The notes beneath the pieces are model-generated. The model saw only the letters and a list, made by a program, of their open reading frames with translations, did no database searches and had not been told where the DNA came from. Both the position numbers and the translations under genes were made by a program. A stretch of 64,000 nucleotides of DNA. Origin: Candidatus Omnitrophota bacterium (lineage in GTDB: Bacteria > Omnitrophota > Gorgyraeia > Zapsychrales > Fredricksoniimonadaceae). Shown here piece by piece: positions 8,796 to 55,522 of the stretch. Location of the stretch: NCBI GenBank assembly GCA_963828495.1, contig CAWHFJ010000017.1, forward strand, positions 148,342 to 212,341, written 5' to 3'. Numbering within the stretch: position 1 is the stretch's first letter; the number at the start of each line of letters is the position of its first letter.

Positions 8796-9272
8796 ATGGA
8801 ATATTCTTTTGCATCCTATCAAATAGCAGAAATGGCGAGTGAAATGGAGAAGGAAGGTGGTCATTTTTATCAGCAATTGGCTGATTTTTCGAAAGATGAA
8901 GCCGTCAAAGAATTGTTTTCATATTTAGCTAAAAGTGAAAAGAAGCATGAAAAAGACTTCCTGAGTATTGCCCAAGATACCAAGGCTTCGGAAGAAGTTT
9001 ATGCATATCACGTTAATATCGCCGGGATGATGAAATCTGGAATTAAAAGACTCAAGAGGGCAATGATCTATAATCAACAGATTGATATGCCACAAGCCTT
9101 AGAAATTGCCATCAATGGTGAAGAATTGGCCGTAGAGGTTTACAGCGAGATCCTCGGGGCTTATTCAGAACAGTTTAGTAAAGTTTTAGAGAAAATTATT
9201 GCTCAAGAAAAATCACATTTAAAAAGGATTAAAAATTTAAAACAAATACTCCAACCTGACCAAAGAAATTAG
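8796..9272 (+). CDS. ferritin-like / rubrerythrin-like diiron four-helix-bundle protein (paralogue 1)
   Basis: Two ExxH motifs (EKKH, EKSH) plus paired Glu residues. About 80-85% nt identity by eye to 46645-47139, including the shared RBS region caaagaaaggga.catccATG. 1-nt gap to the next gene. Confidence 0.55.
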   Translation: MEYSFASYQIAEMASEMEKEGGHFYQQLADFSKDEAVKELFSYLAKSEKKHEKDFLSIAQDTKASEEVYAYHVNIAGMMKSGIKRLKRAMIYNQQIDMPQALEIAINGEELAVEVYSEILGAYSEQFSKVLEKIIAQEKSHLKRIKNLKQILQPDQRN

Positions 9273-9273
9273 G

Positions 9274-10644
9274 ATGCTTTCCAAAACATTTATCTTCTTT
9301 TTGTTTCCGGCCATTTTTTGCCCTACTTACGCTTACGCTTACATCGATCCCGGATCAGGCGGGTATCTGATCAGCTCCATCCTCGCTACTATAGGCGCTT
9401 TCTGCGCATTGGCCTCAGCATTCGTGATACATTTTTTCCGTAACATCGTCGGGAAAACGATCCGTACTCTGTGGCGCAAGCATCGTTTGTTATTTCTGGC
9501 AGGGGTGTTGGGTTTGATAGCCGCAACAGGGGCCGTTATTTTTTATATATTGTATGAACCGGCCATTGCGCCTTTCGACGCTTCCCTTTCCGGGGCCCAT
9601 ATTCATGATGCCATGCGCATATATGATGGGTATAGTTTGTATGAAGGCAAACTGATAGACATGCAGGGGCATGTGGTTAAAAAATGGAAAAATATTTTTT
9701 TAGGTGTGATCGACCCGCAAACAGGGGATTATTACGCGCAAAAATCTTTTGAAGCGCCTCTCTGGGGCAGATATACGTGGGATGATAAAGTTATTTGGGA
9801 GAAAAATTTTCCCATCCATCATGACCTTGTCCTGACCCCCAAGGGAACAATTATCACATTTACCAAGGAGGTCCATCAATACCAGGGCCGCGATGTTGAA
9901 TTTGACGTGATTCTTGAATTTGACAAAGAGGGAGCTCTGCTCACGCGTTTTTCTTTATGGGACCATCTTAAAGAGTTTCAGCGCTTCCATAAACCCCTGG
10001 AGTTGGATATGCCCCATACGTTTATTATTCCTGAAGAACACCGTGAGAAAAAAAGTATTTGGGGCGGCAGTTACGATTATTACCATTTAAATGCGTTAAG
10101 CATTATCCCGCCTAATGCCAGGCAAGGGCTCCATCCGGCTTTTCGTCCGGGCAATTGGTTGATCAGCTTCCGGCACGGCAGCATGGTTTTTATTTTAGAC
10201 CAGGACACCCGGCAAATTCTCTGGCGGGCAGTTTATGACCAGGTCCCGGACCGTCTGGAGGGCCCGCATGCGCCGCAGATGCTGGAAAACGGTAATATTA
10301 TGATTTTCGACAATGGCCGTTACCGCAAATGGTCGCGGATCATTGAACTTGATCCTGTGACCCTCAAACCTGTCTGGGAATACCGGGACAAAAATTTTTA
10401 TACACTGTCTCAAGGCTATGTGCAGAAACTGCTCAATGGGAACATGTTGATCACCGAAGCGGAAAAAGGGTATGTGTTTGAGATGACCCCCGACAAAAAA
10501 ACCGTTTGGGAATATTATCATCCTGACAAGCAGAACAAGACGAATTCGACAGACGAAAAGAAATGGGGATTAAGGCAGGAAATTTATCGCATGATCCGTT
10601 ATCCTAAAGCCCAGATAGATCGTTGGCTTAAACCCGCCTCATGA
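9274..10644 (+). CDS. arylsulfotransferase (ASST) family protein, N-terminally membrane-anchored
   Basis: Signal-like segment plus two TM helices, then a beta-propeller-like body. Motifs typical of the Arylsulfotran families: PIHHD, YDYYHLN, GNWLISFRHGSMVFILDQDTRQILW, NGNIMIFDNG. Paralogous to 11405-12517. Confidence 0.6.
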   Translation: MLSKTFIFFLFPAIFCPTYAYAYIDPGSGGYLISSILATIGAFCALASAFVIHFFRNIVGKTIRTLWRKHRLLFLAGVLGLIAATGAVIFYILYEPAIAPFDASLSGAHIHDAMRIYDGYSLYEGKLIDMQGHVVKKWKNIFLGVIDPQTGDYYAQKSFEAPLWGRYTWDDKVIWEKNFPIHHDLVLTPKGTIITFTKEVHQYQGRDVEFDVILEFDKEGALLTRFSLWDHLKEFQRFHKPLELDMPHTFIIPEEHREKKSIWGGSYDYYHLNALSIIPPNARQGLHPAFRPGNWLISFRHGSMVFILDQDTRQILWRAVYDQVPDRLEGPHAPQMLENGNIMIFDNGRYRKWSRIIELDPVTLKPVWEYRDKNFYTLSQGYVQKLLNGNMLITEAEKGYVFEMTPDKKTVWEYYHPDKQNKTNSTDEKKWGLRQEIYRMIRYPKAQIDRWLKPAS

Positions 10645-10658
10645 GGAACTAAAAATAC

Positions 10659-11402
10659 ATGCTGATATTGTTCATTGCTTTTATTTGTGGCTATTTGGAT
10701 TCAGGTTTGGGCGGCGGCTATGGCACGGCACTGGCGCCTATCCTGATTTTGATGGGGTATAAACCCTTGGTTGTTATCCCGGTGGTATTAGCCTCGCAAT
10801 TTTTGACAGACATGGTGGCCTGTTGTGTTCATCATCAGGTTAAAAATGTGGATTTACATTTTAAATCCGATCATTTTAAAATAGCCGGGATTATAGGGCT
10901 TTTCAGTTTAATAGGGGTTGTCATTTCCGTTTTTGTGGCCATAGCGGTCCCGCAATGGATACTGACCTTGTATATAGGGGGCCTTGTCATTGCGATGGGC
11001 GTACTCATGCTTTTGACCGTCGATAAAGTATTCAAGTTTTCTTGGAAGAAGATTTTGGCGCTGGGGACTATAGCCTCATTTAACAAAGGCATATCAGGCG
11101 GCGGATTTGGCCCGTTGTTGACAGGCGGGCAAGTGTTGTCAGGGATCGACGCTAAGAATGTTATAGGTATGACGGCATTGGCAAAGGCCATGACATGTTT
11201 TGTCGGGTTTATGCTCTATTTTATCATGGGCAAGCCTATCAACTGGCATTTGATATTTATGCTTTGGCTGGGGGCGATTCCTGCAGTCATTGGAGCGGGC
11301 TTGACGGTAAAATATATCCCTACACATAAATTAAAAAAGACTATCGCTGTTTTTATTATAATCTTAGGTGTCCTGACACTTTTGAAGATCGGCGGGAAAT
11401 AG
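10659..11402 (+). CDS. TauE/SafE (TSUP) family anion permease
   Basis: 247 aa and polytopic. The two halves are internally duplicated, each with a Gly-rich loop (GLGGGYG; GISGGGFG), as in the sulfite-exporter TauE/SafE family. Confidence 0.75.
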   Translation: MLILFIAFICGYLDSGLGGGYGTALAPILILMGYKPLVVIPVVLASQFLTDMVACCVHHQVKNVDLHFKSDHFKIAGIIGLFSLIGVVISVFVAIAVPQWILTLYIGGLVIAMGVLMLLTVDKVFKFSWKKILALGTIASFNKGISGGGFGPLLTGGQVLSGIDAKNVIGMTALAKAMTCFVGFMLYFIMGKPINWHLIFMLWLGAIPAVIGAGLTVKYIPTHKLKKTIAVFIIILGVLTLLKIGGK

Positions 11403-11404
11403 GC

Positions 11405-12517
11405 ATGAGTTTTATTGACCTTGTTAAGCAGAATCTTCGTGAATTAGAAGAACCCCGGTTTAACGCATCATTATCCGGGGCGCATACCTATGTCCCGGAG
11501 AAGGTCTCACCCGGGTTTAATTTATTCGATGGGCGTTTGATAGACACCAACGGAGGGGTATTAAAAACCTGGAAAGCCTGTTACCTGGGCCGTATTTTGC
11601 CCCAGGGGCTGTATGTGGCGCAACGCCATTATGAGTCGATAATTTGGGGCTTGTATGATTGGCAGGACAAGGTTATTTGGGAAAAAGACATGCCGATCCA
11701 CCATGATATTTTTTTTACGGCGCGTGGCACGATCATCACGTTAACCAAAGACATGCACCTTTTTCATGGCAGGAAAGTGGATTTTTGTGTTGTGGTTGAG
11801 TTTGCTCTTGACGGTCATGAAATAATGAGATGGTCCACCTATGAGCATTTGTCCCAACTCAAACAATACCATCGTGCTCTTGAACTTGACCGGCCCAAGA
11901 TATTTTTCCTCCCGGAGCCTCCGGGCCGCAAATCAGCAACCCCGTGGGGAGGCAACTATGATTATTACCGCATGAATTCGTTCCAACTTCTCCCGGAAAC
12001 ATTGCTGGGAAGCAAGGATCCGCGGTTTCGCGCCGGCAACTGGTTGATCAGTTTCCGTCATGGCAGCATGGTCCTGATTTTAGACCAGGATACGCATAAG
12101 GTCGTCTGGACATGCATTGCCCAAGAGATTCCCGATGGCCTGCAGGGCCAGCATGCCCCAACCATGCTGGCGGACGGGAGGATCATTATTTTTGATAATG
12201 GCCGGTACCGAGGTTGGAGCCGTATCATTGAACTTGACCCGGTCACGAAAAAAGTGATGTGGCAATACCGCGCGGACGGGTTTTTTACATTGTCTCAGGG
12301 ATATGTGCAGAGGCTTGCTAACGGCAATACGCTGATAACCGAGAGCGAGCGGGGGCGTGTTTTTGAGATCACGCGTGAAGGCCGGGTGGTGTGGGAGTAT
12401 TACCATCCTGATGGGCAAAATGCGTCCAATTCCCAGCATCCGGAAAATTTTGGTCGTAGGCAATGGATTTACCGCATGGTCCGTTATGAACCCGCATTCA
12501 TAGAACCCTTTTTGTAA
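11405..12517 (+). CDS. arylsulfotransferase (ASST) family protein, no signal peptide
   Basis: Collinear with residues ~100-456 of the 9274 protein. Shared blocks: SLSGAH, VIWEK..PIHHD, GNWLISFRHGSMV.ILDQDT, IIFDNGRYR.WSRIIELDPVT, WEYYHPD. It lacks the hydrophobic N-terminus. Confidence 0.6.
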   Translation: MSFIDLVKQNLRELEEPRFNASLSGAHTYVPEKVSPGFNLFDGRLIDTNGGVLKTWKACYLGRILPQGLYVAQRHYESIIWGLYDWQDKVIWEKDMPIHHDIFFTARGTIITLTKDMHLFHGRKVDFCVVVEFALDGHEIMRWSTYEHLSQLKQYHRALELDRPKIFFLPEPPGRKSATPWGGNYDYYRMNSFQLLPETLLGSKDPRFRAGNWLISFRHGSMVLILDQDTHKVVWTCIAQEIPDGLQGQHAPTMLADGRIIIFDNGRYRGWSRIIELDPVTKKVMWQYRADGFFTLSQGYVQRLANGNTLITESERGRVFEITREGRVVWEYYHPDGQNASNSQHPENFGRRQWIYRMVRYEPAFIEPFL

Positions 12518-12577
12518 TTCCCGCCTAAAATACCCATATAAAATAGTTCACTTTATACTTCATAGCAAAGAAATGTA

Positions 12578-12607
12578 TTGTATACTTTAATTTGGGGTAT
12601 ATATAAA
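12578..12607 (+). promoter_or_regulatory. candidate sigma70-type promoter of tpsA
   Basis: TTGTAT (12578-12583), 18-nt spacer, TATAAA (12602-12607). gcgagg RBS-like sequence precedes the GTG start at 12625. Pattern match by eye only. Confidence 0.25.
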
Positions 12608-12624
12608 AATATGCGAGGCTTTTT

Positions 12625-15600
12625 GTGAAAAAAATTATTCATTGCATCACAGCCATTGCATTCTTTTTCCTCTCCATTGTCCCCAGCCCCGGATTTGCTT
12701 TTAATGTCAATGTGGTCCAAGGCAATGCCACTGTCAGCACTAATGGCAATACCGTTACCATTACCGCCACCGGCCGTGCCATTCTTCAAGGTAATACCAG
12801 CATACCCTCCGGTGTAACCGTCGATGTGATCCAGGGAGTCAATGACATCATGCTGCGTGATATCACCGGCAGCCGCACGGATATTTTGGGCTCTCTGCTA
12901 TCCAACGGGAACATTATTTTGATCAACGCGATGGGCATTTTTATCGGCCAATCCGCCAATGTCAATGTGGGAGGGCTGATTGCCTCTACCCTGGATATGA
13001 AGAACAATTTATTCATGAGCGGCAACTATCAGTTTGAAAAAATTCCAGGTCTTAACCCTGCGGAGATCCTCAATGAGGCCAATATTAATATTGCCAATGG
13101 GGGATATATCATTTTATTGGCAGACCGAGTGGTGAACAAGGGAACGATTACGGCGTATATGGGAACAGTGGCGTTAGGCTCAGGCCAGCAAGCCACGGTT
13201 AGTTTTGATCAAGGGGGATTGGTCAATCTGGTGATAGATCAGGGCTTGGCGCAACAGCTGACCAACAGCAGTGGTAAAAGCAAAGCGCAGATTGTCAATA
13301 GCGGCAAGATATATGCCAACGGCGGACGGATCCAGATGACAGCGGAATTGCTGGAGACAACCCTTGAACAGATTGTGAATAACACCGGAGTTCTACAAGC
13401 CAATAATGTCGCTGAACAGGGAGGCATAGTTGAACTGACTGCCAGTGGCGCCATTAACAACAGCGGGACGATCCAAGCAGCCAGTATGATAGAGCAAGCC
13501 GAGACTTTTCATTCCACAGGGGTGCTGGATGTTGGTCATGGGTATTTTAACAATCTTGATGGGGCGATCAATATTTCTGGGTCTATTAGTGGGACAATTG
13601 CGGATGTAGGCGATATCGATTTGACCGGTGCCGTGAGCCTGACCGGAGACACCACCTTGCAGGCAGATTCCGGAGGCGCTCAATCCGGTGAAATTGTGAT
13701 GAACACCAACCCCTTGACAGGCAACAATTTCAATCTGACCATGTACACAGGAGAGAATGACACGTTAGACGGTTCTATCACAGGCGTTAATCTGCTGACG
13801 CTCAACTCTTCAACTGTCAACGACAAGATTTTTACCTCAACAGGCGCTTCTTTTAGTGTGAACACCCTGCAAACCAATAACTACGCGCTTTTTTCGCGTT
13901 ACCAGGGCAATGGCACTTCAAGTGATCCGTATATGATTTACTCGGATTCGCCTGTGTGGGGTGGATTGGAGTATATCGTCAATACCCCTAATGCTTATTA
14001 TGAATTGGCCAACAACATCAATGCTGCTGACACATCAAGCTGGAATTCCGGGGCAGGATTTACTCCCATTGGCAATAGCTCTACACCATTTAAAGGGACC
14101 TTCAACGGCAACAATTACACGATATCTAATTTATTCATTAACCTTTCTTCAACCAATGATGTTGGTCTTTTCGGCTATACATCAGGAGCTACCATTAAAA
14201 ATGTCGGATTGGTTAATGCCCATATCACGGGACAAAATTATGTCGGTAGCCTTGTCGGCTTTAATTATAATGCAAGCACCATCGACAACAGCTATGCCAC
14301 GGGCAGTGTCAGCGGGAGTGGTAATATCGTTGGCGGCCTGGTGGGTGAAAATGATTATTTAAGCAGCATCGTCAACAGCTATGCCACCGGTAATGTGAGC
14401 GGAAATAATGAAGTCGGCGGCCTGGTGGGTAGAAATTATTATACAAGCAGCATTACCGACAGCTATGCCACCGGTAATGTGAGCGGGAATAATACTGTCG
14501 GCGGCCTGGTGGGTTATAATATTAGATCAGGTCTCATCGACAATAGCTATGCTGTGGGTAATGTCAGCGGGAGTGGTAATCAGGTCGGCGGCCTGGTGGG
14601 ATATAATAATAATTTAGGCAGCATTACTAACAGCTATGCTACCGGCAGTGTCAGCGGGAATAATGACGTCGGCGGCCTTGTTGGTCGAAATTATTATTCA
14701 AACATCGACAACAGTTATGCCACCGGCAGTGTCAGCGCCGGTAGTAATGTCGGCGGGCTGGTTGGTTCCAACTCTTATTCAAGCATTGATAACAGTTTTG
14801 CCACTGCCGGCGTAAACGGTAGTAGTAACGTCGGCGGTCTTGTTGGTTCTAATTATTTGAGCAGTATCAATAACTCCTACTACACAGACTCCAATAATCA
14901 AAATGGCCTGGGTACTTTTGAATCTGGCGGCCCCAGCGCTTTCTATAATTCAAGCCATGCTGTCTACAATGGCGATACGCCCTGGGACTTTAACGGTTTA
15001 TGGAAGGATGGCGCAGGACTTGCGTATCCTACCTTAGTATGGCAGGGCATGAACAATGGCTCCTTTATCGGCGGCACTCCTGCTATTCCTTTTCTCATTT
15101 ATAATGTCAATCAACTGCAGTTTATGGACTATGAGCTTAGCGCATCTTTCCAATTAGCTTCGGACATTGACGCCAGTGCCGCCTCCGTCTGGAATGCTGA
15201 TAGCGGGTTTACTCCCGTTGGCAATAGCTCTACACCATTTACCGGTACTTTCAACGGCAACATTTACACGATTTCTAATTTATTCATCAATCTGCCATCA
15301 ACAGATAATGTCGGTCTTTTTGGGTATACATCAGGTGCCGGCATTGAGAATACAGGACTTATAAATGCCAATATCACGGGACAAAATAATGTCGGCGCCC
15401 TTGTGGGTTTAAGTACTAATTCAAGCAGCATCATTGGAAGTTATGCTGCCGGCAGTGTTAGCGGAAGTGGTGATCAAGTCGGCGGTCTTGTTGGATATAA
15501 TCTGAATTCAAGCAGTGTCGCCAATAGCTATGCCACCGACAGTGTCAGCGGGGGAGCTAATGTCGGCAGCCTTGTGGGTAGAAATTATAATTCAAGCATC

Positions 15601-18600
15601 GACAACAGCTATGCCACCGGCAGTGCCGGCGGGAGTGCTAATAATGTCGGCGGCCTTGTGGGGGGTAATGTTGATTCGAGCAGCATTACCAACAGTTTTG
15701 CCACGGGCAGTGTAAGCGGTAGTAGTGCTGTCGGCGGGCTTGTGGGTTACAATGATAATTCAAGCAGCATCGTTAACTCCTATTACACCGACTCCAATCA
15801 TGAAAATGGTCTTGGCATATTTGAATCCGGCGGTGCTGCGGCTTTTTATTCTCCTGCAAACCCGGTTTATGCGATAGGTACGGCAGGTGGGTGGGATATC
15901 TTTACGCCTCTATGGGATACCTATATAGATGAATTGCCTCGTCTACACTGGGAACATCATTCAGGCAACTTTGTGCCTTACTGGCTAGGGACAAGTTCCA
16001 ACGATTTTGATACCGCATCTAACTGGTCTGATAATTCTGTGCCGGGGAGTAGTTCAACGGTCATCATCGCCAACGCAAGCAATGAACCCACCCTTAATGA
16101 AATCACCACATTAGCTAATTTTTTTATAGGTTCCGGCACCTTCACTCAAAATAATGCTCTGACGTTAACTGGTAACTATGCCCAGGCTGGCGGGACATTC
16201 AATCAAAACGCCACCCTTTCTGTTGAAGGCAACTTTTTTCAAAGTGGTGGTATTTTTACCTCACCGCCCGCCAATACTTTTACAGTAGGCAACAATTTTT
16301 CTTTAACCGGAGGCACATTCAGCCGTTTTACTGGTTTGGGTACAGGGCAAAATCCGTATCTTATTTATGATGTCTACGGCCTTGAAGGGATGGGAGGCTT
16401 TCTCTCAAGCGCCTTTGAACTTGGCCATGACATTGATGCATCAACCACAAGCAACTGGAACACAGGGGCAGGATTTACTCCTATTGGAAACAACTCTATA
16501 CAATTTAATAGCACCTTTAACGGTAACAACTACACGATTTCTAATTTATTCATCAATCTGCCATCAACGAATGATGTGGGTTTGTTCGGGTATACGTGGG
16601 GAGCTATCCTTGAGAATGTCGGGCTTCTTCATGCCAACATCACGGGACAAAATAATGTCGGCGGGCTTGTTGGTAGCAATTATTATTCAAGCCTCGCCAA
16701 CAGCTATGTCACCGGCAGCGTCAGCGGAAATGGTAATGATGTCGGCGGACTTGTTGGGTTAAATCAAAATTCAAGCATCGTCAACAGCTATGCCACTGAC
16801 AGTGTAAGTGTAAGCGGCCCGCCTGGGAATTCATATGCAGGAGGCCTTGTTGGTTATAATGTTAATTCAAGCAGTATCAACAATAGCTATGCCACCGGCA
16901 ATGTAAGCGGATTTTTTTATGTCGGCGGGCTTATTGGTGGCAATTTTTATTCAAGCAGCATCGACAACAGCTATGCCGCAGGCAGCGTAAGCGGCACTGC
17001 TAATTGTGTCGGCGGCCTTGTGGGTGATAATTCTTCAAGCAGCATTGCCAACAGCTATGCCATTGGCAATGTCAGCGGTGCTGGTTATGTCGGCGGCCTT
17101 ATTGGTGAAAATTATTCAAGCAGCATTGCCAACAGCTATGCCACTGGCCATGTCAGCGCTGGTAGTTATGTTGGAGGCCTCGTTGGTTATAATGCTAATT
17201 CAAGTAGCATTGACAACAGCTATGCCGCCGGCAGTGTCAGCGGGAGTGCTAATAATGTCGGCGGGCTTGTTGGTGATAATTCTTCAAGCAGCATTGCCAA
17301 TAGTTATGCTACTGGATTGATATCCGGATCAACAAACGTTGGAGGATTGGTAGGGTATGATAGCGGCGGCACGTATACCGCTAACTTTTTTAACAATACT
17401 GTCAATTCATTATTGACAGGCACGGGCAATAATAGCAATGTCTCAGGCATCAGTGGCGAATCTACGGCTAATATGCAAACCACATCTGCTTTTACGGGGG
17501 CCGGTTGGGACTTTAATGGTCTTTGGGCGATCAATACTAATGAATATCCGCATCTCTTGTGGCAGGACATGGGAGACGGCAGTGCTTTTATCGGAGGGAC
17601 CAGTGCGCATCCGTTCCAGATTTCTAATGTGAATCAACTGCAGTTTATGGGCTATGCCACAAGCGATTATTTCCAATTAGCTTCTGCTATTGACGCCAAT
17701 GCCACCTCCGGCTGGAATGCCGGGGCAGGGTTTACTCCCATTGAAGGATTCACCGGCACCTTCAACGGTAATAATTACACGATATCTAATTTATTCATCA
17801 ATCTTCCGACAATGAATGGTGTAGGACTGTTTGGGCAAACTTCAGAAGCTACCATTGAGAATGTCGGATTAGTCGATGCCAATATTACGGGACAAAATGG
17901 AGTCGGTAGCCTTGTGGGTTATAATTTTAATTCAAGCAACATCGACAATAGCTATGCCACTGGCAGTGTAAGCGGGAGCAATCAAGTCGGCGGCCTTGTT
18001 GGTTTAGCTCGTTGGGATTCAACCATCGCCAACAGCTATGCCACCGGCAATGTAAGCGGTAGTAGTGATGTTGGCGGCCTTGTGGGTAGTAATTATTTAG
18101 GCAGCATCGACAACAGCTATGCCACCGGCAGTGTCAGCGGGAGTGGTAGTATCGGCGGCCTTGTGGGTGAAAATGATTATTCAGGCAGTATCGCCAACAG
18201 CTATGCCACCGGTAATGTGAGCGGGAGTAATCAAGTCGGCGGCCTTGTTGGTGATAATAATACTAATTCTAGCAGCATCGTCAACAGCTTTGCCACTGGC
18301 AGTGTTAGCGCCAGTAGTAATGTCGGCGGCCTTGTTGGGTATAATCAGTCCGGCAGTATCAACAATGCCTATTACACCGACTCCAATCATCAAAATGGCC
18401 TTGGCACCTTTGAACCCGGCGGTGCCGCGGCCTTTTATTCTCCCGGGCATCCGGTTTATGCTATAGGTACGCCAGGCGAGTGGGATATCTTTACTCCCCT
18501 ATGGGACACCTATACGGACCAACTGCCTCATTTACATTGGGAACATCATTCAGGCAATTTCACTCCTTACTGGTTGGGGACAAATTCCGGTGATTTTGAT

Positions 18601-21600
18601 ACGGCATCCAACTGGTCTAATGATGCTGTGCCGGGCATTGGCTCAACGGTGATCATTTATAGCGGCGCCAATGACCCCACCCTCAGTACCACTACCACAT
18701 TAGCCAATTTACTTATAGACTCCGGGACCTTTACTCAAAATGGTGATCTGACCTTGTCTGGTCAATATGGCCAAGCTGGGGGAACATATGATCAAAACGC
18801 CAATCTTGCTATTGGCGGCAACTTCTCGCAAAGTAGCGGTACCTTTGTTTCCGACACCACCAAGACTTTCACAGTGGGCAATAGTTTTTCTTTAACGGGG
18901 GGAACATTCAGCCGTTTTACTGGTTTGGGAACAGGCATTGACCCGTATCTTATTTATGACGTTTATGGGCTTGAAGGGATGAGAGGATTTCTTTCGAGTA
19001 CGTTTGGGCTTGCCAACAATATTGATGCATCAGCTACGAGCAACTGGAATTTAGGAGCAGGATTTACTCCTATTGGCAACAGTTCTGCAGGATTTATCGG
19101 CACCTTCAATGGTAACAATTACACTATTTCTAATTTATTCATTAATCTTCCTACAGCAAGTAATGTCGGCCTTTTTGGGTATACATGGAGAGCTACTATT
19201 GAGAATGTCGGATTAATCAATGCCAATATCACGGGACAAAATAATGTCGGTGCCCTTGTTGGCGTAAATCAGTATTTAAGCAACATTGATAACAGTTATG
19301 CCACCGGCAGTGTAAGCGGAAATAATGGTAATAATATCGGCGGCCTTGTTGGTTACAATGTTAATTCAAGCAGCATCGACAACAGCTATGCCACCGGTAG
19401 TGTAAATGGGAATACTAGTGTCGGCGGCCTTGTGGGTATGAATAATTATAGAATCAGCATCAACAACAGCTATGCTACAGGCAGTGTAAACGGGAATTAT
19501 AATGTCGGCGGCCTTGTTGGGTATAATTATAATTCAAACACCATTGCCAATAGCTATGCCACCGGCAATGTCAGCGGGAGTAATCAAGTCGGCGGCCTTG
19601 TTGGGTATAATTATAATGCAAACAGCATTACCAACAGCTATGCCACCGGCAATGTCAGCGGGAGTAATCAAGTCGGCGGCCTTGTTGGTCAAAATAATTA
19701 TAGAATCAGCATCGACAACAGCTATGCCACCGGCAATGTCAGCGGGAGTAGCAGTATCGGCGGCCTTGTTGGTGGAAGTTATAATTCATGCAGCATTGAT
19801 AACAGTTATGCCAGCGGTAGTGTAACTGGGAATAATCAAGTCGGTGGCCTTGTAGGTTATAATTCTTATTCAAACATCACCAACAGCTTTGCCGCTGGCA
19901 GTGTAAGCGGAAGTAGTAGTGTCGGCGGCCTTGTGGGTTATAATTATTATTCTAACATCACCAACAGCTTTGCTGCTGGCAGTGTTAGCGGAAGTAGTGA
20001 TGTCGGCGGCCTTGTTGGATATAATCAGTCAGGCAGTATCAACAATGCCTATTACACGGACTCCAATTATCAAAATGGCCTTGGCACCTTTGAACCCGGC
20101 GGTGCCGCGGCCTTTTATTCTCCCGGGCATCCGGTTTATGCTATAGGTACGCCAGGCGAGTGGGATATCTTTACTCCCCTATGGGATACCTATACGGACC
20201 AACTGCCTCATTTACATTGGGAACATCATTCAGGCAACTTCACTCCTTACTGGTTGGGGACAAATTCCGGTGATTTTGATACGGCATCCAACTGGTCTAA
20301 TGATGCTGTGCCGGGCATTGGCTCAACGGTGATCATTTATAGCGGCGCCAATGACCCCACCCTCAGTACCACTACCACATTAGCCAATTTACTTATAGAC
20401 TCCGGGACCTTTACTCAAAATGGTGATCTGACCTTGTCTGGTCAATATGGCCAAGCTGGGGGAACATATGATCAAAACGCCAATCTTGCTATTGGCGGCA
20501 ACTTCTCGCAAAGTAGCGGTACCTTTGTTTCCGACACCACCAAGACTTTCACAGTGGGCAATAGTTTTTCTTTAACGGGGGGAACATTCAGCCGTTTTAC
20601 TGGTTCGGGAACAGGCATTGACCCGTATCTTATTTATGACGTCTATGGACTCCAAGCGATGGAAGATTATCTGTCGAGCACAACGTTTGGACTTGCCAAT
20701 AACATTGATGCAACAGGAACAAGCAACTGGAATTCTGGTACAGGATTTTCCCCCGTTGGCAACAGCACGACCCCTTTCACCGGCACCTTTGACGGCAACA
20801 GTTACACGATATCTGATTTATTCATCAATCTCCCCTCAACGAGTAACGTAGGATTATTTGGATATACATCAGGAGCCACTTTAGAAAATGTCGGGCTTTT
20901 AAATATTAATATAACGGGAGGGAATTCAGTCGGCGCCCTTGCTGGTTTTATTGCTTATTCAAGCAATATCGACAATAGTTATGCCACAGGTAGTGTAAGC
21001 GGGAGCGGTAATGGAGTCGGCGGTCTTATCGGTTACAGTGATCTTTCAAACAGCATCACTAACAGTTATGCTACTGATAGTGTAAGCGGTAGTAGTTCTG
21101 TTGGCGGTCTTGTTGGGGATAATGTCAATGGAAGTAGTATTACCAACAGCTATGCCACCGGTAATGTAAGACTTACGGATAGTGGTGGGGCTAATGTTGG
21201 TGTCGGCGGTTTGGTCGGCTTTAATGGCTGGGGAAGTAGTATCAGCAATAGCTATGCCATTGGTAGTGTTAGCGGTGGTTATAGTGCAATCGGTGGTCTT
21301 GTTGGTTCTAATGCTTGGGGGGCTAGCATTGCCAACAGCTATGCCACCGGCAGTGTCAGCGGTGGCTATAATGATTTCGGTGGCCTAGTTGGTAGTAATA
21401 CTTATGGAGGAAGCATCACCAACAGCTATGCCACCGGTAGTGTAAGTGGATATGAAGATGTTGGAGGACTTGTTGGGTACAACAGTAATTCAAGTAGTAT
21501 AGCCAACAGCTATGCCGTTGGCAGTGTAAGCGGTGGCAGTAATGTCGGCGGGCTTATAGGATCTTACGACGGCAATAGCACTCTGACGAATAACTGGTGG

Positions 21601-22992
21601 TACAATTCCCTGAGCAATGGTATTGGTAATACTGGTCCCAATACAAGCGTTGGGCATTGGCAGGAGGCTGCCAGCGCTAGCGCTTTCTTTAATACCTCTA
21701 ATCCTGTCTATACGGGAGGGGCTCCCTGGGATTTCACTAATACCTGGCTGGCCACAGGTGTTATGTATCCCGATCTCCTCTTCTTGTATAATATTTGGTC
21801 CGGCTCCGGCAACTGGTCTGATGCCGCCAACTGGAGCAAGAATATTGTGCCGACTGCAATGAGCAAGGTTTTGTTTAATGCCACAAGCCTGGATGATTCA
21901 ACCATTGATGCTTTTGGAGGCAACATCGGCAGTCTTGTGATCACATCCGGCTATACCGGCAACATTGCTCAAAGCAATGACCTGACTTTATCTAGTAACT
22001 ACATTCAAAATGGCAGCACATTCAATCAAAATGCCAATCTTTCTATTAATGGCAACTTCTTTCAGACTGGCGGTGCTTTTATTTCCGACACCACTAAAAC
22101 TTTTACAGTGGGCAATAGTTTTTCTTTAAGTGGAGGGACATTCAACCGATTTACTGGTTTGGGTACAGGATTAGACCCGTATCTTATTTATGACGTTTAT
22201 GGACTCCAAGCGATGGAAGATTATGTGTCGAGCACCACTTTTGAACTTGCCAATAACATTGATGCAACAGGGACAACGAACTGGAACTCAGGCGCAGGAT
22301 TTACTCCCGTTGGCAACAGCACGACACCTTTCACCGGTACTTTCAACGGCAACAATTACACGATATCAAATTTATTCATCGATCTTCCAACAACGAATGG
22401 TGTAGGTCTTTTGGGGTATACATCAGGGGCTACTATAGAGAACGTCGGACTGGTAAATGCTAATATCACGGGACAAAATAATGTTGGTGCGCTTGTTGGT
22501 TATAGTAATACTTCAAGCAGCATCGATAATAGTTATGCCACCGGTATTATAAGTGGTAATACTAATGTAGGCGGCCTTGTTGGCACTAATTATAGTTCAA
22601 GCAGCATCGCCAACAGCTATGCCACCAGCAGTGTAAGCGGCAGTAGTTACGTCGGTGGCCTTGTTGGTTATAATCATTCAAGCAGCATCGACAATAGCTA
22701 TGCCACCGGCAATGTAAATGGAAGCGGGAGTGGTAATCAGGTCGGTGGCCTTGTTGGTTATAATAATCATTCAAGCAGCATCGACAACAGCTATGCCACA
22801 GGCAATGTCAGCGGGAGTGGTGGTAATGTCGGCGGCCTTGTTGGTAACAATGATATTCAAACAGCATCGTCAACAGCTATGCCACCGGCAGTGTCAGCGG
22901 TAGTTATAATGTCGGCGGCCTTGTTGGCACTAATTATGGTTCAAGCAGCATCGCCAACAGCTATGCCACTGGCAGTGTCAGTGGGAGTGTGA
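12625..22992 (+). CDS. longest uninterrupted part of the TpsA-like gene (signal peptide, TPS domain, arrays 1-7); the last ~46 codons are out of frame
   Basis: 3455-aa ORF. The GLUG frame is lost at ~22855 (gatattcaa versus the usual gattattcaa), after which the ORF reads ...QTASSTAMPPAVSAV... Confidence 0.85.
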   Translation: MKKIIHCITAIAFFFLSIVPSPGFAFNVNVVQGNATVSTNGNTVTITATGRAILQGNTSIPSGVTVDVIQGVNDIMLRDITGSRTDILGSLLSNGNIILINAMGIFIGQSANVNVGGLIASTLDMKNNLFMSGNYQFEKIPGLNPAEILNEANINIANGGYIILLADRVVNKGTITAYMGTVALGSGQQATVSFDQGGLVNLVIDQGLAQQLTNSSGKSKAQIVNSGKIYANGGRIQMTAELLETTLEQIVNNTGVLQANNVAEQGGIVELTASGAINNSGTIQAASMIEQAETFHSTGVLDVGHGYFNNLDGAINISGSISGTIADVGDIDLTGAVSLTGDTTLQADSGGAQSGEIVMNTNPLTGNNFNLTMYTGENDTLDGSITGVNLLTLNSSTVNDKIFTSTGASFSVNTLQTNNYALFSRYQGNGTSSDPYMIYSDSPVWGGLEYIVNTPNAYYELANNINAADTSSWNSGAGFTPIGNSSTPFKGTFNGNNYTISNLFINLSSTNDVGLFGYTSGATIKNVGLVNAHITGQNYVGSLVGFNYNASTIDNSYATGSVSGSGNIVGGLVGENDYLSSIVNSYATGNVSGNNEVGGLVGRNYYTSSITDSYATGNVSGNNTVGGLVGYNIRSGLIDNSYAVGNVSGSGNQVGGLVGYNNNLGSITNSYATGSVSGNNDVGGLVGRNYYSNIDNSYATGSVSAGSNVGGLVGSNSYSSIDNSFATAGVNGSSNVGGLVGSNYLSSINNSYYTDSNNQNGLGTFESGGPSAFYNSSHAVYNGDTPWDFNGLWKDGAGLAYPTLVWQGMNNGSFIGGTPAIPFLIYNVNQLQFMDYELSASFQLASDIDASAASVWNADSGFTPVGNSSTPFTGTFNGNIYTISNLFINLPSTDNVGLFGYTSGAGIENTGLINANITGQNNVGALVGLSTNSSSIIGSYAAGSVSGSGDQVGGLVGYNLNSSSVANSYATDSVSGGANVGSLVGRNYNSSIDNSYATGSAGGSANNVGGLVGGNVDSSSITNSFATGSVSGSSAVGGLVGYNDNSSSIVNSYYTDSNHENGLGIFESGGAAAFYSPANPVYAIGTAGGWDIFTPLWDTYIDELPRLHWEHHSGNFVPYWLGTSSNDFDTASNWSDNSVPGSSSTVIIANASNEPTLNEITTLANFFIGSGTFTQNNALTLTGNYAQAGGTFNQNATLSVEGNFFQSGGIFTSPPANTFTVGNNFSLTGGTFSRFTGLGTGQNPYLIYDVYGLEGMGGFLSSAFELGHDIDASTTSNWNTGAGFTPIGNNSIQFNSTFNGNNYTISNLFINLPSTNDVGLFGYTWGAILENVGLLHANITGQNNVGGLVGSNYYSSLANSYVTGSVSGNGNDVGGLVGLNQNSSIVNSYATDSVSVSGPPGNSYAGGLVGYNVNSSSINNSYATGNVSGFFYVGGLIGGNFYSSSIDNSYAAGSVSGTANCVGGLVGDNSSSSIANSYAIGNVSGAGYVGGLIGENYSSSIANSYATGHVSAGSYVGGLVGYNANSSSIDNSYAAGSVSGSANNVGGLVGDNSSSSIANSYATGLISGSTNVGGLVGYDSGGTYTANFFNNTVNSLLTGTGNNSNVSGISGESTANMQTTSAFTGAGWDFNGLWAINTNEYPHLLWQDMGDGSAFIGGTSAHPFQISNVNQLQFMGYATSDYFQLASAIDANATSGWNAGAGFTPIEGFTGTFNGNNYTISNLFINLPTMNGVGLFGQTSEATIENVGLVDANITGQNGVGSLVGYNFNSSNIDNSYATGSVSGSNQVGGLVGLARWDSTIANSYATGNVSGSSDVGGLVGSNYLGSIDNSYATGSVSGSGSIGGLVGENDYSGSIANSYATGNVSGSNQVGGLVGDNNTNSSSIVNSFATGSVSASSNVGGLVGYNQSGSINNAYYTDSNHQNGLGTFEPGGAAAFYSPGHPVYAIGTPGEWDIFTPLWDTYTDQLPHLHWEHHSGNFTPYWLGTNSGDFDTASNWSNDAVPGIGSTVIIYSGANDPTLSTTTTLANLLIDSGTFTQNGDLTLSGQYGQAGGTYDQNANLAIGGNFSQSSGTFVSDTTKTFTVGNSFSLTGGTFSRFTGLGTGIDPYLIYDVYGLEGMRGFLSSTFGLANNIDASATSNWNLGAGFTPIGNSSAGFIGTFNGNNYTISNLFINLPTASNVGLFGYTWRATIENVGLINANITGQNNVGALVGVNQYLSNIDNSYATGSVSGNNGNNIGGLVGYNVNSSSIDNSYATGSVNGNTSVGGLVGMNNYRISINNSYATGSVNGNYNVGGLVGYNYNSNTIANSYATGNVSGSNQVGGLVGYNYNANSITNSYATGNVSGSNQVGGLVGQNNYRISIDNSYATGNVSGSSSIGGLVGGSYNSCSIDNSYASGSVTGNNQVGGLVGYNSYSNITNSFAAGSVSGSSSVGGLVGYNYYSNITNSFAAGSVSGSSDVGGLVGYNQSGSINNAYYTDSNYQNGLGTFEPGGAAAFYSPGHPVYAIGTPGEWDIFTPLWDTYTDQLPHLHWEHHSGNFTPYWLGTNSGDFDTASNWSNDAVPGIGSTVIIYSGANDPTLSTTTTLANLLIDSGTFTQNGDLTLSGQYGQAGGTYDQNANLAIGGNFSQSSGTFVSDTTKTFTVGNSFSLTGGTFSRFTGSGTGIDPYLIYDVYGLQAMEDYLSSTTFGLANNIDATGTSNWNSGTGFSPVGNSTTPFTGTFDGNSYTISDLFINLPSTSNVGLFGYTSGATLENVGLLNINITGGNSVGALAGFIAYSSNIDNSYATGSVSGSGNGVGGLIGYSDLSNSITNSYATDSVSGSSSVGGLVGDNVNGSSITNSYATGNVRLTDSGGANVGVGGLVGFNGWGSSISNSYAIGSVSGGYSAIGGLVGSNAWGASIANSYATGSVSGGYNDFGGLVGSNTYGGSITNSYATGSVSGYEDVGGLVGYNSNSSSIANSYAVGSVSGGSNVGGLIGSYDGNSTLTNNWWYNSLSNGIGNTGPNTSVGHWQEAASASAFFNTSNPVYTGGAPWDFTNTWLATGVMYPDLLFLYNIWSGSGNWSDAANWSKNIVPTAMSKVLFNATSLDDSTIDAFGGNIGSLVITSGYTGNIAQSNDLTLSSNYIQNGSTFNQNANLSINGNFFQTGGAFISDTTKTFTVGNSFSLSGGTFNRFTGLGTGLDPYLIYDVYGLQAMEDYVSSTTFELANNIDATGTTNWNSGAGFTPVGNSTTPFTGTFNGNNYTISNLFIDLPTTNGVGLLGYTSGATIENVGLVNANITGQNNVGALVGYSNTSSSIDNSYATGIISGNTNVGGLVGTNYSSSSIANSYATSSVSGSSYVGGLVGYNHSSSIDNSYATGNVNGSGSGNQVGGLVGYNNHSSSIDNSYATGNVSGSGGNVGGLVGNNDIQTASSTAMPPAVSAVVIMSAALLALIMVQAASPTAMPLAVSVGV
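12700..13500 (+). other. TPS (haemagglutination-activity-type) secretion domain of TpsA
   Basis: It follows the signal peptide MKKIIHCITAIAFFFLSIVPSPGFA. The sequence is NVVQGNATVSTNGNTVTITATGRAILQGNTSIP...ILGSLLSNGNIILINAMGIFIGQSANVNVGGLIASTLDM, matching the NPNGI / N-x-x-G-x-x-x-N pattern of TpsA N-termini. Domain boundaries are approximate. Confidence 0.75.
18322..18962 (+). repeat. intragenic segmental repeat, copy 1 (linker class B)
   Basis: Near-identical to 20002-20642 at a 1,680-bp offset. I count about 7-8 mismatches in ~640 bp. Confidence 0.85.
20002..20642 (+). repeat. intragenic segmental repeat, copy 2 (linker class B)
   Basis: See 18322-18962. Confidence 0.85.
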
Positions 22993-29520: not shown

Positions 29521-29763
29521 ACTAATTCAAGCAGCATTACCAACAGCTACGCTGCTGGCAATGTAAGCGGTAATAATGAAGTCGGCGGCCTTGTTGGTTA
29601 TACTAATTCAAGCAGCATTACCAACAGCTACGCTGCTGGCAATGTAAGCGGCAATAATGAAGTCGGCGGCCTTGTTGGTTATACTAATTCAAGCAGCATT
29701 ACCAACAGCTACGCTGCTGACAGTGTAAACGGTAATAGTCAAGTCGGCGGCCTTATTGGTGGT
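29521..29763 (+). repeat. near-perfect 81-bp tandem repeat (three GLUG units, YTNSSSITNSYAAGNVSGNNEVGGLVG)
   Basis: Units start at 29521, 29602 and 29683. The first two differ at one position (ggt versus ggc); the third diverges in its second half. Confidence 0.85.
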
Positions 29764-43018: not shown

Positions 43019-44208
43019 TGGATCAACGGATGGATCTCGTTATTATTGGGCATGTGGACCACGGCAAAAGTACGGTAGTCGGCCGTCTTTTGGCTGATGC
43101 AGGGTTTTTGCCGGATGGCAAATTGCAACAGGTCAAAGAGCGTTGCGTTATGAGTCACAGGCCGTTTGAGTATGCTTTTTTGGTCGATGTGCTTAAAGAA
43201 GAGCAGGCGCGAGGCATCACCCTTGATTCAGCCAGAATTTTCTTTAAAACACAAAAAAGACATTATATGGTCATGGATGCACCGGGCCATACGGATCTGT
43301 TAAGAAACATGGTGACCGGTGCGGCATTGGCTGACGCGGCCATTGTGGTGATTGATGTTAAGGCAGGGGTACAGGAAAATACCCGTCGGCATACGCACTT
43401 GCTGCCTTTATTGGGGGTCGGGCAGGTTCTGGTCGTCGTTAACAAGATGGACCTGGTGGGATTTGCCCAGGAGCCTTTTGAGGCCATGAAAAATGAGTAT
43501 GCCCGCTTTTTGTCACAATTGAATATCCGCTCTTTCGGTTATATTCCTATCAGCGCACGCGAAGGTGATTGTCTGACACGGCATAGCTTACGGATGAGGT
43601 GGTATAACGGGCCGACATTACTTGAAGCGCTCGATCGATTGAGCCCTGCCGTTGAAGATATTAAGGCCCCTTTTCGCATGCCGGTCCAGGATGTTTATAC
43701 GTTTCCGGATTATAGGGACGGATGTCCGCTGATCGCAGGGACACCGACGAGCGGGGTTGCGGCTGTAGGGGATGAGTTGATTTTTTATCCTTCAGGAAAG
43801 ACGGGATTGATAAAGACCATTGAACGTTTCGGCACATCTGCTACCTTAGAAGCAAAAGCAAGAAATTGCGTCGCTTTGACGTTGCAAGAGCCCATTAAGA
43901 CCGCACGCGGTCAATTAGCAGTAAAAAAGACGATGGGTATGCCCCCGTGCGTTGCTTCCAGGATCAGGGTCAATCTTTTTTGGCTGGGATCTGTGCCTAT
44001 GGTCAATGGTCGTGCATACACATTGAAAATCGGTACGGATGAAGTGGGGGTGCAGGTGGAGTCCATTGATGAGGGCATTCTTAAGACAGCCAGGCCGATT
44101 GCATTTGACCTTGCCGGCAGTTTGGCGGGCGCAGGCCGTTTTGTGATTGTTGATGAGCATCGGATCTCCGGAGGTGGAGTAATCCTTGAAACGCTTGAGG
44201 ATCATTGA
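43015..44208 (+). CDS. cysN: sulfate adenylyltransferase subunit 1 (GTPase subunit)
   Basis: G1 [10 protein letters not shown]3 DAPGH, G4 NKMD. EF-Tu-like domain II follows. At 397 aa it is shorter than E. coli CysN and has no fused APS-kinase domain. Confidence 0.85.
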
Positions 44209-44218
44209 TAGGAGAAAA

Positions 44219-45703
44219 ATGAAAATTTTATTGAAAGAAAAGTATTTATTATGGGTACTGGCGGTTATTGTAGGGATGGCTAATCCCTGTCAAGCGTTCG
44301 CGGATGACACTACCACCGCGGCCATTGAAAAACGTCTCAATGATCTGGAACAGCAGGTGGCAGAACTTAAACAAGAACTACAAGAACAAAAGCAAAAAAA
44401 CGCCCAAAATGCCCCGCAAGTAACTCCAACTCCGCCGGCAGCTATTGTTACAGCCAACAGCAAGGATGGATTCTCTATTAAATCAGAGGATGGGAATTAT
44501 AGTCTTAAAATCGGCGGCTATACACAGATAGAAGCCCGTGAATTCGGGGCTAATAATAAGGAAGAATTAGATGAAAACAGCAGTATTTTAGCCCGCCGGG
44601 TCAGGCTTATTGTGCAAGGAACAGTAGCCCGTGATTTCGATTATTATTTACAGCCTGATTTTGGTTACAATAATGCTGTTAGCAACATCACCACCACCAC
44701 TCCAAGCGCGTATGCCGTGGCCCTTCAGGATGCCTGGGTAGATTATAAATATTTCCCTGAAGCTACCATCAAAGCGGGTAAGATGAAAACGCCTTTTGAT
44801 CTGGAAAACTTGCAGGATACCCGGTATACGTCCTTTACTGAATTAGGTTTAACAGGCAATCTTTCTCCTCAGCGGGATATTGGGGCGCAATTAGGCGGAA
44901 GCTTGTTCGACGACATAGTAAATTACGCAGGAGGTATTTATGACGGCGCCGCTGACAAGGAAACCGGCTATGGCGGATACAGCACAGCGGCCGGCGGTGA
45001 TACAAATAATAAAAGCGGTACAGGCCGTATTTTTATTAAACCATTTAAAGATACAGGTATCGGTCCCTTAAGAGGTTTGGGAGTGGGTTATGCGGTCAGT
45101 TATGGTAAACAGAAAGGTAGTGACCTGCCCAGTTTCATAACACCCGGACAAGCGCCGATATTTACTTATAACAGCAACGTGTCTGCAGCCGGTCCGCAGT
45201 TGCGTACAGAACCTCAGGCGTATTATTACTATAAATCATTAGGGATTTTAGCCGAAAAAGTCACTGATCAGGAATCATTGCAATATACCGGCGGCACCGC
45301 CGGCAATCCTATTGTTTATCGTGACAGACCGTATAATGAGGCTTGGGAAGTGACCGGCACCTATGTTTTAACGGGTGAAAATGCCTCTTATAATGGGGTC
45401 ATACCTAATAATGACCTTGATCCGTCTAAAGGTCATTGGGGAGCATTTGAGTTAGCCGGCCGTTACGGAGAGTTAAAGTTAGATAGTTCTATTTTTACTG
45501 AAAATTTTGCCAACTTAAACACGTCCGTATCCTCTGAGAAAGCCTGGGCCATAGGGATCAATTGGTATCTAAACCGGAACGCCAAAGTAGTTTTTGATTT
45601 TGAACAAACCAAGTTTGATCGCGGGGCAGTTAATGGAGAACAAACAGATGATCGTAAAACCGAAAATCTGTTCACCACAATGATTCAGTTGAGTTTAGGC
45701 TAA
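44219..45703 (+). CDS. OprO/OprP-type (phosphate/anion-selective) porin with N-terminal coiled coil
   Basis: ATG at 44219 after an aggag RBS, then a signal peptide (..MANPCQAFA). Coiled coil IEKRLNDLEQQVAELKQELQEQKQK. The body is beta-rich and ends ...MIQLSLG. Family resemblance to Porin_O_P. Confidence 0.7.
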   Translation: MKILLKEKYLLWVLAVIVGMANPCQAFADDTTTAAIEKRLNDLEQQVAELKQELQEQKQKNAQNAPQVTPTPPAAIVTANSKDGFSIKSEDGNYSLKIGGYTQIEAREFGANNKEELDENSSILARRVRLIVQGTVARDFDYYLQPDFGYNNAVSNITTTTPSAYAVALQDAWVDYKYFPEATIKAGKMKTPFDLENLQDTRYTSFTELGLTGNLSPQRDIGAQLGGSLFDDIVNYAGGIYDGAADKETGYGGYSTAAGGDTNNKSGTGRIFIKPFKDTGIGPLRGLGVGYAVSYGKQKGSDLPSFITPGQAPIFTYNSNVSAAGPQLRTEPQAYYYYKSLGILAEKVTDQESLQYTGGTAGNPIVYRDRPYNEAWEVTGTYVLTGENASYNGVIPNNDLDPSKGHWGAFELAGRYGELKLDSSIFTENFANLNTSVSSEKAWAIGINWYLNRNAKVVFDFEQTKFDRGAVNGEQTDDRKTENLFTTMIQLSLG

Positions 45704-55513: not shown

Positions 55514-55522
55514 AATAAGCGT

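Follow-up and report, generated by a model that had tools for sequence, protein, structure and literature searches.

Sulfation outside the cytoplasm faces a supply problem, as the donor 3′-phosphoadenosine 5′-phosphosulfate (PAPS) is made inside the cell. Arylsulfate sulfotransferases (ASSTs) work by a ping-pong mechanism via a sulfo-histidine and require an activated donor; in vitro they sulfate tyrosine-containing peptides and proteins, aliphatic alcohols and sugar hydroxyls, and the natural acceptors and physiological role of most bacterial ASSTs are unknown (PMC13426309). In the caprazamycin pathway of Streptomyces, as far as it is summarised in PMC4257720 (citing Tang et al. 2013), the PAPS-dependent enzyme Cpz8 sulfates a phenolic carrier, which then serves as donor for the PAPS-independent Cpz4; the latter sulfates a sugar hydroxyl of a small molecule (PMC13426309). 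Here, we analysed a stretch of 64,000 nucleotides (nt) from contig CAWHFJ010000017.1 of a Candidatus Omnitrophota bacterium, referred to in its full length as the window, in which two ASST paralogues, a long one (ASST-L) and a short one (ASST-S), share a gene cluster with a TauE permease, a two-partner secretion (TPS) pair whose giant exoprotein TpsA is built of GLUG repeats, and genes for PAPS synthesis. This gene cluster suggests a route of cell-surface sulfation that has not been described before. We put the probability at roughly 0.5 that it is a conserved module for envelope sulfation, coupled to a giant GLUG protein that is exported by two-partner secretion; its chemical steps, the carrier and the acceptor are all inferred.

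In the literature searched, no paper links ASSTs to Omnitrophota, DPANN archaea, TPS systems or giant proteins. Of two preprints that deal with giant proteins of Omnitrophota, neither mentions sulfate, ASSTs or two-partner secretion; what one describes is secretion of type II/IV and flanks with glycoside hydrolases.

Gene content of the cluster

The following genes make up the cluster:

8796..9272, + strand: rubrerythrin/ferritin-like four-helix-bundle protein with two ExxH motifs (Pfam PF02915, E 7e-12)
9274..10644, + strand: ASST-L, a membrane-anchored Cpz4-like arylsulfate sulfotransferase homologue of 456 amino acids (aa) (Pfam PF05935, E 5e-17; PF14269, E 8e-17)
10659..11402, + strand: TauE/SafE (TSUP) anion permease between the ASST paralogues (Pfam PF01925, E 3e-24)
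11405..12517, + strand: ASST-S, a Cpz4-like beta-propeller protein of 370 aa (PF05935, E 1e-10; PF14269, E 1e-23)
12625..39824, + strand: tpsA, giant GLUG-repeat exoprotein of ~9,100 codons, interrupted (phmmer against the PDB, Pfam Glug, frame map)
39834..41606, + strand: tpsB, Omp85-type two-partner secretion transporter (Pfam ShlB 2e-24, POTRA_2 6e-21)
41616..42170, + strand: cysC, adenosine 5′-phosphosulfate (APS) kinase, which makes PAPS (Pfam PF01583, APS_kinase, E 7e-54)
42136..43018, + strand: cysD, sulfate adenylyltransferase subunit 2, frameshifted twice (Pfam PAPS_reduct on the first 121 residues)
43015..44208, + strand: cysN, GTPase subunit of sulfate adenylyltransferase (Pfam GTP_EFTU 4e-43)
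44186..45703, + strand: OprO/P-type anion-selective outer-membrane porin (Pfam PF07396, Porin_O_P, E 9e-29)

The gene order and common strand given in the original prediction agree with the open reading frames (ORFs) of the window, every one of its domain assignments is backed by a Pfam match, and the 107-nt spacer between ASST-S and tpsA and the 9-nt gap between tpsB and cysC are as it had stated. The PAPS synthesis set consists of CysC and CysN, both with intact reading frames and their motifs present, and of cysD, which encodes a PP-loop domain but carries two frameshifts; no APS kinase is fused to cysN. Neither cysH nor sulfite reductase, whose absence had been noted before, nor a gene with a Sulfotransfer domain occurs among the Pfam-annotated ORFs of the window, and a tblastn search of the window with the canonical sulfotransferase of a related locus (L058, see below) gave no match. 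No type III polyketide synthase (PKS) or PKS-like ORF was found among the annotated ORFs, small ORFs having been scanned only in part. The window contains no Dsb genes (DsbL/DsbI partner operon) and no tRNA genes, and promoter and terminator scans inside the cluster gave nothing above background.

The start of tpsA (12625-13650) encodes a signal peptide followed by a TPS domain, which phmmer against the PDB matched to EtpA (8cpk, E 3e-23), HMW1 (2odl, E 8.5e-16) and also HxuA (range 3e-23 to 9e-14). Judged from these matches it is a genuine TPS domain; the Pfam TPS family is not listed for the full 3,455-aa tpsA fragment but is recorded for the orthologue in locus L003, and the usual NPNG motif reads NAMG. 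Tandem units of 84 nt (range 81-87 nt) follow, and Pfam Glug was found, at E 1.6e-15 or better, in all tested tpsA fragments except 27484-28053. With tpsB, which carries ShlB and POTRA_2, directly adjoining, the pair is what it had been taken for, and the locus belongs to two-partner secretion (type Vb).

In its overall design the locus resembles a hybrid, by analogy, of a TPS operon whose accessory gene modifies the cargo (HMW1C, EtpC) and a two-step sulfation of the Cpz type. As for the former, EtpA and HMW1 are the closest solved structures of the TPS domain, and accessory genes (ASST-L/ASST-S, cysC) are conserved together with tpsAB in the window and in L001, L003, L041 and L059; unlike in HMW1ABC and EtpBAC, these genes encode ASST homologues and APS kinase and not a GT41 glycosyltransferase, and modification of the cargo is presumed here. 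Xanthomonas RaxST/RaxPQ likewise places local PAPS synthesis beside a secreted, presumably sulfated product, but RaxST is a PAPS-dependent enzyme of the TPST type, whereas no Sulfotransfer domain occurs among the annotated ORFs of the window, and its target RaxX, a small peptide, leaves the cell through a type I system. Since the defining enzymes of both systems are absent, the locus is of neither the RaxST nor the HMW1C type.

Family, fold and active site of the two ASST paralogues

Both paralogues score above the curated thresholds of the Pfam ASST models PF05935 and PF14269 (24.2 and 27) in a hidden Markov model (HMM) search, with 62.4 and 62.0 bits for ASST-L and 41.4 and 84.2 bits for ASST-S, so that the ASST assignment made earlier holds. 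AlphaFold2 (AF2) models are confident beta-propellers with predicted local distance difference test (pLDDT) scores of 90.2 for ASST-S and 88.5 for ASST-L. Searched with Foldseek against the PDB, they had Cpz4 (9kf6/9kf4) as first match (E 7e-17 for ASST-S, 4e-16 for ASST-L), ahead by ~8 orders of magnitude of the next matches, which are generic propellers (~1e-9 to 3e-8); the ASST of E. coli CFT073 (EcAST/AssT, PDB 3ELQ) was absent from the top 50. On the sequence level, a single-sequence phmmer search of ASST-S against the PDB was uninformative, and a sequence profile reached Cpz4 at E 1e-5; the identity of the paralogues to Cpz4 is 16-20%.

The active site was located by aligning EcAST, taken from the CFT073 genome, with hhalign (21% probability, with matching motifs); published active-site numbering equals precursor numbering minus 27 (residues from PMC13426309). 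In ASST-S numbering, EcAST H252 corresponds to H100, N358 to N191, R374 to R218 and the nucleophile H436 to H250, and H356 falls on position 189, which is Arg189 in ASST-S. In a census of 111 homologues (34 long and 77 short), H100, N191, R218 and H250 are present in 77/77 short and 33-34/34 long forms. Position 189 separates the two groups: 32/34 long forms have His there, and 75/77 short forms have Arg. ASST-L thus has the canonical signature H-H-N-R-H, which also dominates among 124 diverse representatives of the wider ASST family (11,709 clusters at E <=1e-3), two of which have the Arg189 variant. The short forms have a second extra Arg (R207) and two conserved Cys without counterpart in the long forms.

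By HMM, fold and catalytic residues both paralogues are members of the ASST family, and from their residues both look catalytically competent. With Cpz4 they share the motifs YDYxHxN, R-x-H and QH, and in Cpz4 the stretch YDYVHINS has His at the equivalent of position 189, the same as in EcAST. With EcAST they have in common the six-bladed propeller core and the equivalents of H252, N358, R374 and H436, the long form also that of H356 and a predicted position outside the cytoplasm. Differences from EcAST are the soluble nature of that enzyme, whereas the long form is membrane-anchored, and here the additional, presumably cytoplasmic Arg variant and the linkage to PAPS synthesis genes. Furthermore, both paralogues are propeller-only (370 aa; 456 aa including the transmembrane region) and lack the N-terminal beta-sandwich of the EcAST type, and DsbL/DsbI partner genes are missing from the window; beta-sandwich and DsbL/DsbI operon define an enterobacterial ASST subgroup and not the whole family.

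Predicted compartments of the paralogues

The long forms begin with a signal-like hydrophobic segment, followed by A-x-A-YIDPG(S/T)GGYL, a second hydrophobic helix, a strongly basic loop and a third helix. In ASST-L of the window, the signal-like segment and AYIDPGSGGYL precede a helical hairpin with the basic loop and then the beta-propeller. Given the basic loop and the positive-inside rule, the ASST-L propeller is predicted to lie outside the cytoplasm. The short forms open with a short amphipathic helix; as they lack a signal peptide, ASST-S is predicted to be cytoplasmic. This agrees with the earlier view of an anchored long and a signal-peptide-free short ASST (three N-terminal hydrophobic segments versus none). 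Conserved Cys residues, found in the short forms only, were counted for the compartment split as well. Neighbouring genes fit a cytoplasmic short and a periplasmic long enzyme: the short form adjoins cysC in five loci (L012, L015, L017, L038, L041) and the long form adjoins tpsB in three (L007, L027, L040).

The motif A-x-A-Y-I-D-P-G-S/T-G-G-Y-L after the signal-like segment is near-invariant in bacterial as well as archaeal long forms (window 9274-9560, for example).

Conservation of the gene neighbourhood

Close homologues of ASST-S number in the hundreds; where a source name is given, which is seldom, the label is Omnitrophota and in some cases archaeal. Neighbourhoods were counted over ~20 non-redundant, independent loci of Omnitrophota and Woesearchaeota. 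In these, ASST genes are accompanied by APS kinase/CysDN in 10 loci, by TpsB/TpsA in 9 and by GLUG proteins in 8. The gene cysC stands beside ASST genes in the window, L001, L003, L012, L015, L017, L025, L038 and L041, and cysD and cysN are near them in L025 and L036; tpsB or tpsA is present in L001, L003, L007, L025, L027, L040, L041 and L059, and GLUG proteins in L001, L003, L007, L036, L041, L059 and the archaeal contig L006/L060. APS/PAPS, TPS and GLUG genes normally occur once or a few times per genome, and the linkage of ASST genes to these three types is therefore far beyond chance. The arrangements are as follows:

L003: ASST-L, ASST-S, TpsA (TPS and GLUG, 1,544 aa), TpsB, APS kinase
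L001: ASST-L, ASST-S, TpsB, APS kinase; GLUG TpsA 8 kb downstream, TauE 2 kb upstream
L059: ASST-L, ASST-S, followed by a GLUG TpsA (3,643 aa or longer)
L041: ASST-S, CysC, GLUG TpsA
L007: GLUG TpsA, TpsB, ASST-L
L025: TpsB, two further genes, ASST-L, CysC, CysD, CysN
L036: two GLUG proteins, ASST-L, CysD; on the opposite strand CysN, TauE and a second CysD
L012, L015, L017, L038: ASST-S directly beside CysC
L027, L040: TpsB directly beside ASST-L

Synteny, which the original prediction had left to be checked in relatives, is hence conserved in many of them. The distance from ASST-S to tpsA is 71-107 nt in three loci, the tpsB stop and cysC start overlap by one base in L001 and L003, and a TauE gene near ASST genes recurs in L001, L021, L036 and L063. 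The ferritin-like gene and the porin, by contrast, do not belong to the conserved part of the module proposed earlier. The ferritin-like gene was rejected as a core component, as it is not conserved in other loci (tblastn matches to the first rubrerythrin gene, 8796-9272, only in the window and L063), and so was the OprO/P porin, for which tblastn finds no match in other loci.

An archaeal contig (L006/L060), recognisable by genes for the ribosomal proteins L24e, S28e and L7Ae, carries an ASST-L/ASST-S pair that is oriented divergently from the adjoining gene for a GLUG protein of 1,173 aa, and has no TPS genes. Because the pair here adjoins a GLUG protein without TPS machinery, the link between ASST and GLUG is independent of TPS. 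The complete Woesearchaeota genome CP060218 (L009) has the ASST pair among surface proteins with Laminin_G_3 and Big_13 domains. Both Woesearchaeota pairs are 45-58% identical to the Omnitrophota proteins, and this suggests that the ASST pair has passed between ultra-small bacteria and archaea.

Other loci place ASST genes in a different company. In L058 (1-11113), an operon with four radical-SAM/SPASM genes, Sulfotransfer_1/3, DUF2334, Asn synthase and glycosyltransferase ends in ASST-L (514 aa) and ASST-S, possibly a biosynthetic cluster that uses both kinds of sulfotransferase. Large non-GLUG proteins with signal peptides stand beside ASST genes in L055 (2874-8558; 1,894 aa) and L053 (11411-14866; 1,151 aa); they share an N-terminal domain, DEFRLPxPG...LKGIKxHPDNPFRF, without a Pfam match, and they seem to form a family of secreted proteins not yet described. 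We rejected a general rule by which all large ASST neighbours would be surface proteins, since L018 has a hybrid histidine kinase of 956 aa in this place.

A proposed sulfuryl relay to the cell surface

We propose a relay, since PAPS synthesis is cytoplasmic and the predicted orientation of the canonical long enzyme is towards the periplasm. Sulfate would enter the cell, for which the OprO/P porin may be a route, and CysDN together with CysC would turn it into PAPS in the cytoplasm. There, ASST-S with its Arg189 would take the sulfuryl group from PAPS or a PAPS-derived donor and load it on a small carrier; alternatively, an unlinked PAPS-dependent sulfotransferase could load the carrier in its place. 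The TauE permease, a candidate exporter, would move the sulfated carrier out, and the membrane-anchored ASST-L, with its catalytic domain in the periplasm, would pass the sulfuryl group via the ping-pong sulfo-histidine to an extracytoplasmic acceptor. This acceptor would most likely be the GLUG TpsA encoded in the cluster, or else a group that TpsA carries, during its periplasmic passage to TpsB.

The caprazamycin pathway offers a precedent for such a scheme. Cpz4 is the best structural match of both paralogues, and in what PMC4257720 relates of the Cpz8/Cpz4 pair, PAPS is the ultimate source and an ASST-type enzyme makes the final transfer, as we propose here. The original prediction had cautioned that classical ASSTs are PAPS-independent and that the adjacency might be coincidental; this caveat is answered, though by precedent, since Cpz4 acts downstream of a PAPS-dependent step according to the same summary (PMC4257720). 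The same two-step logic appears in L058, where the Sulfotransfer_1/3 gene lies in one operon with the ASST pair. The window differs from the Cpz system in that neither a Cpz8-type sulfotransferase nor a carrier-making type III PKS is among its annotated ORFs, that two ASST paralogues occupy predicted different compartments with a permease between them, and that the acceptor is presumed to be a surface protein, there an antibiotic.

Several points weigh against this relay. The sulfation chemistry of the module is read from its genes. We know of no ASST-fold enzyme that uses PAPS, and no gene for a Cpz8-like PAPS-dependent sulfotransferase or for carrier synthesis is among the annotated ORFs of the window. 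The presumed exporter TauE occurs in only ~4 of the ~20 independent loci, L007, L025 and L053 have a single paralogue only, and in L058, L018, L055 and L053 ASST pairs lie beside unrelated genes. Moreover, the tyrosine of the GLUG unit is a generic feature and is partly replaced by Phe, and both tpsA and cysD are broken in this sequence. The earlier proposal that the locus may sulfate the adhesin or a surface glycan is partly supported, by conserved linkage, ASST models, a Cpz4-like fold and catalytic residues, and loses its argument from tyrosine.

We regard as improbable the stronger version of the relay, in which ASST-S, as the Arg189 type, would be the first ASST-fold enzyme to draw sulfuryl groups directly from PAPS and, with TauE and ASST-L, would form a transmembrane relay that O-sulfates a giant GLUG adhesin, a new modification of bacterial and archaeal surface proteins shared horizontally by ultra-small Omnitrophota and DPANN archaea.

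Sulfation of the GLUG protein, if it occurs, would give type Vb secretion a new kind of cargo modification. It would likewise mean a new chemistry at the surface of Omnitrophota and DPANN cells, where giant proteins are believed to establish contact with host or prey. With paired ASSTs, a permease, dedicated PAPS synthesis and a candidate acceptor, the module provides a genetic setting for the questions of acceptor and supply.

Disrupted tpsA and cysD

Contrary to the original prediction, tpsA is not a single ORF and cysD is not intact. Between 22.9 and 36.4 kb, tpsA has 12 frameshifts and one in-frame TAA, and its coding sequence is spread over at least 10 open stretches; cysD has two frameshifts and is read in three frames (42136 to ~42500, ~42444-42914, ~42908-43018). 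The ~17 kb of coding sequence around the two genes is intact. The copy of tpsA and cysD in this assembly is either decayed or carries assembly errors.

This raises the alternative that survives best, a tentative but serious one: the locus would be a non-functional remnant with tpsA and cysD as true pseudogenes, and no sulfation would take place in this genome, whatever relatives do. In its favour, the neighbouring coding sequence is spared, and the nonsense codon in tpsA is a substitution and not an indel. On the other hand, the contig names of relatives ("contig_NNNNN") are typical of long-read assemblers, as we take it, and indel errors persist in repeats of such assemblies. In addition, the 96% identical locus L063 has a tpsA call of 5,191 codons without interruption, and an abrupt GC step on the contig suggests assembly trouble.

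At this step, at ~55.6 kb (55400-56000), the GC content rises from ~0.40 to >0.60 within 200 bp and stays at 0.58-0.77 on to 64000, where the genes are high-GC types of the FG-GAP/ASPIC kind; the probable cause is a chimeric join in the assembly or an island of foreign DNA. The minus-strand ORFs 49451-49942 and 50249-50674 resemble halves of one frameshift-split membrane transporter, which would be a third disrupted gene in the window.

Between the window and L063, identity is 95.7% in the flanks and over the initial 2.2 kb of tpsA. Beyond these 2.2 kb, the tpsA repeats (window 14834-39824 against L063 10900-18575) match L063 at only 75-82% and to scattered repeats, and the repeat array is therefore hypervariable between close relatives.

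The acceptor and further alternatives

The original prediction had pointed to the near-invariant tyrosine of the NSYATG motif, which would offer well over a hundred phenolic acceptors. This number is not reached. The interrupted tpsA contains ~122 GGLVG and ~96 xS[YF]A[TSI] motifs, the aromatic position of 87 scored GLUG units is Tyr in 76 and Phe in 6, and the motif tyrosines come to ~90. The tyrosine is a generic feature of GLUG units and says nothing either way: it is present in the plasmid-borne TpsA/TpsB of Aliarcobacter, which has no ASST, cysC or TauE gene within 6 kb, and in the ASST-linked TpsA of L059 the position is Tyr in 16, Phe in 5 and His in 2 units. The GLUG tyrosine was thus rejected as evidence for sulfation, and Ser, Thr or attached glycans are equally possible acceptors.

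GLUG TpsA/TpsB pairs of Proteobacteria and Campylobacterota, such as those on the Aliarcobacter (L061 4615-9049) and Comamonas (L062 4375-12600) plasmids, share with the window the TPS domain, the GLUG/NSYATG cargo and the ShlB-type partner; they differ in the lack of ASST, cysC and TauE within 6 kb, which applies to the Comamonas GLUG TpsA as well. The tpsB gene of the Aliarcobacter locus is interrupted by an IS21 element.

With the tyrosine being generic, a sulfation system with an acceptor other than TpsA has to be considered, namely a surface glycan, a lipid or a small phenolic metabolite, the TPS and GLUG genes merely sharing a cell-surface or host-contact island. We think this unlikely, though not negligible. 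The closest solved relative, Cpz4, acts on a small-molecule sugar hydroxyl (PMC13426309), the L058 pair closes a cluster of radical-SAM, sulfotransferase and glycosyltransferase genes, and L009, L053 and L055 have ASST genes without a GLUG protein. However, a GLUG protein is the commonest immediate neighbour of ASST genes (8 loci), the archaeal contig without TPS ties ASST to GLUG itself, and in three loci no more than 71-107 nt separate ASST-S from tpsA.

A classical ASST role is very unlikely in our view. A periplasmic ASST-L would then exchange sulfate between phenols and aryl sulfates of the environment, in detoxification or scavenging, and cysCDN would serve ordinary sulfur metabolism. 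ASST-L does have the canonical EcAST/Cpz4 signature and is predicted to face outward like EcAST (PMC13426309), and many of the contigs come, to judge from sample names, from bog, soil and groundwater metagenomes. Yet this role leaves unexplained both the conserved cytoplasmic paralogue and the position of cysC in an operon after tpsB or directly after ASST-S, and neither cysH nor sulfite reductase is among the annotated ORFs of the window.

Equally hard to credit is that the Pfam name misleads and the propellers are inactive as sulfotransferases, with a binding, chaperone or scaffold role for large surface proteins: low identity to characterised ASSTs (16-20% to Cpz4), an hhalign probability of only 21% to EcAST and the missing beta-sandwich would fit, but the nucleophile His and the sulfuryl-binding H, N and R are near-invariant over the 111 homologues and dominant in the 124 representatives, and the recurrent linkage to APS/PAPS synthesis genes is hard to explain without sulfur chemistry.

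Flanking genes

Downstream of the porin lies one further gene related to the cluster:

46645..47139, + strand: second rubrerythrin-like paralogue (Pfam 4e-15; 73% aa identity to 8796-9272 by tblastn)

The two rubrerythrin-like genes bracket the 38-kb module as direct repeats. In L063, the rubrerythrin gene at the first position (4890-5330) resembles copy 2 for the most part and copy 1 at its 3′ end, a mosaic which indicates that the flanking copies have undergone gene conversion or recombined with each other. The gene at 47136-48683, in translational coupling with the second rubrerythrin gene, encodes a 515-aa protein with a signal-like N-terminus and no Pfam match, whose GNEFW and TEWN motifs presumably recall glycosidases of clan GH-A.

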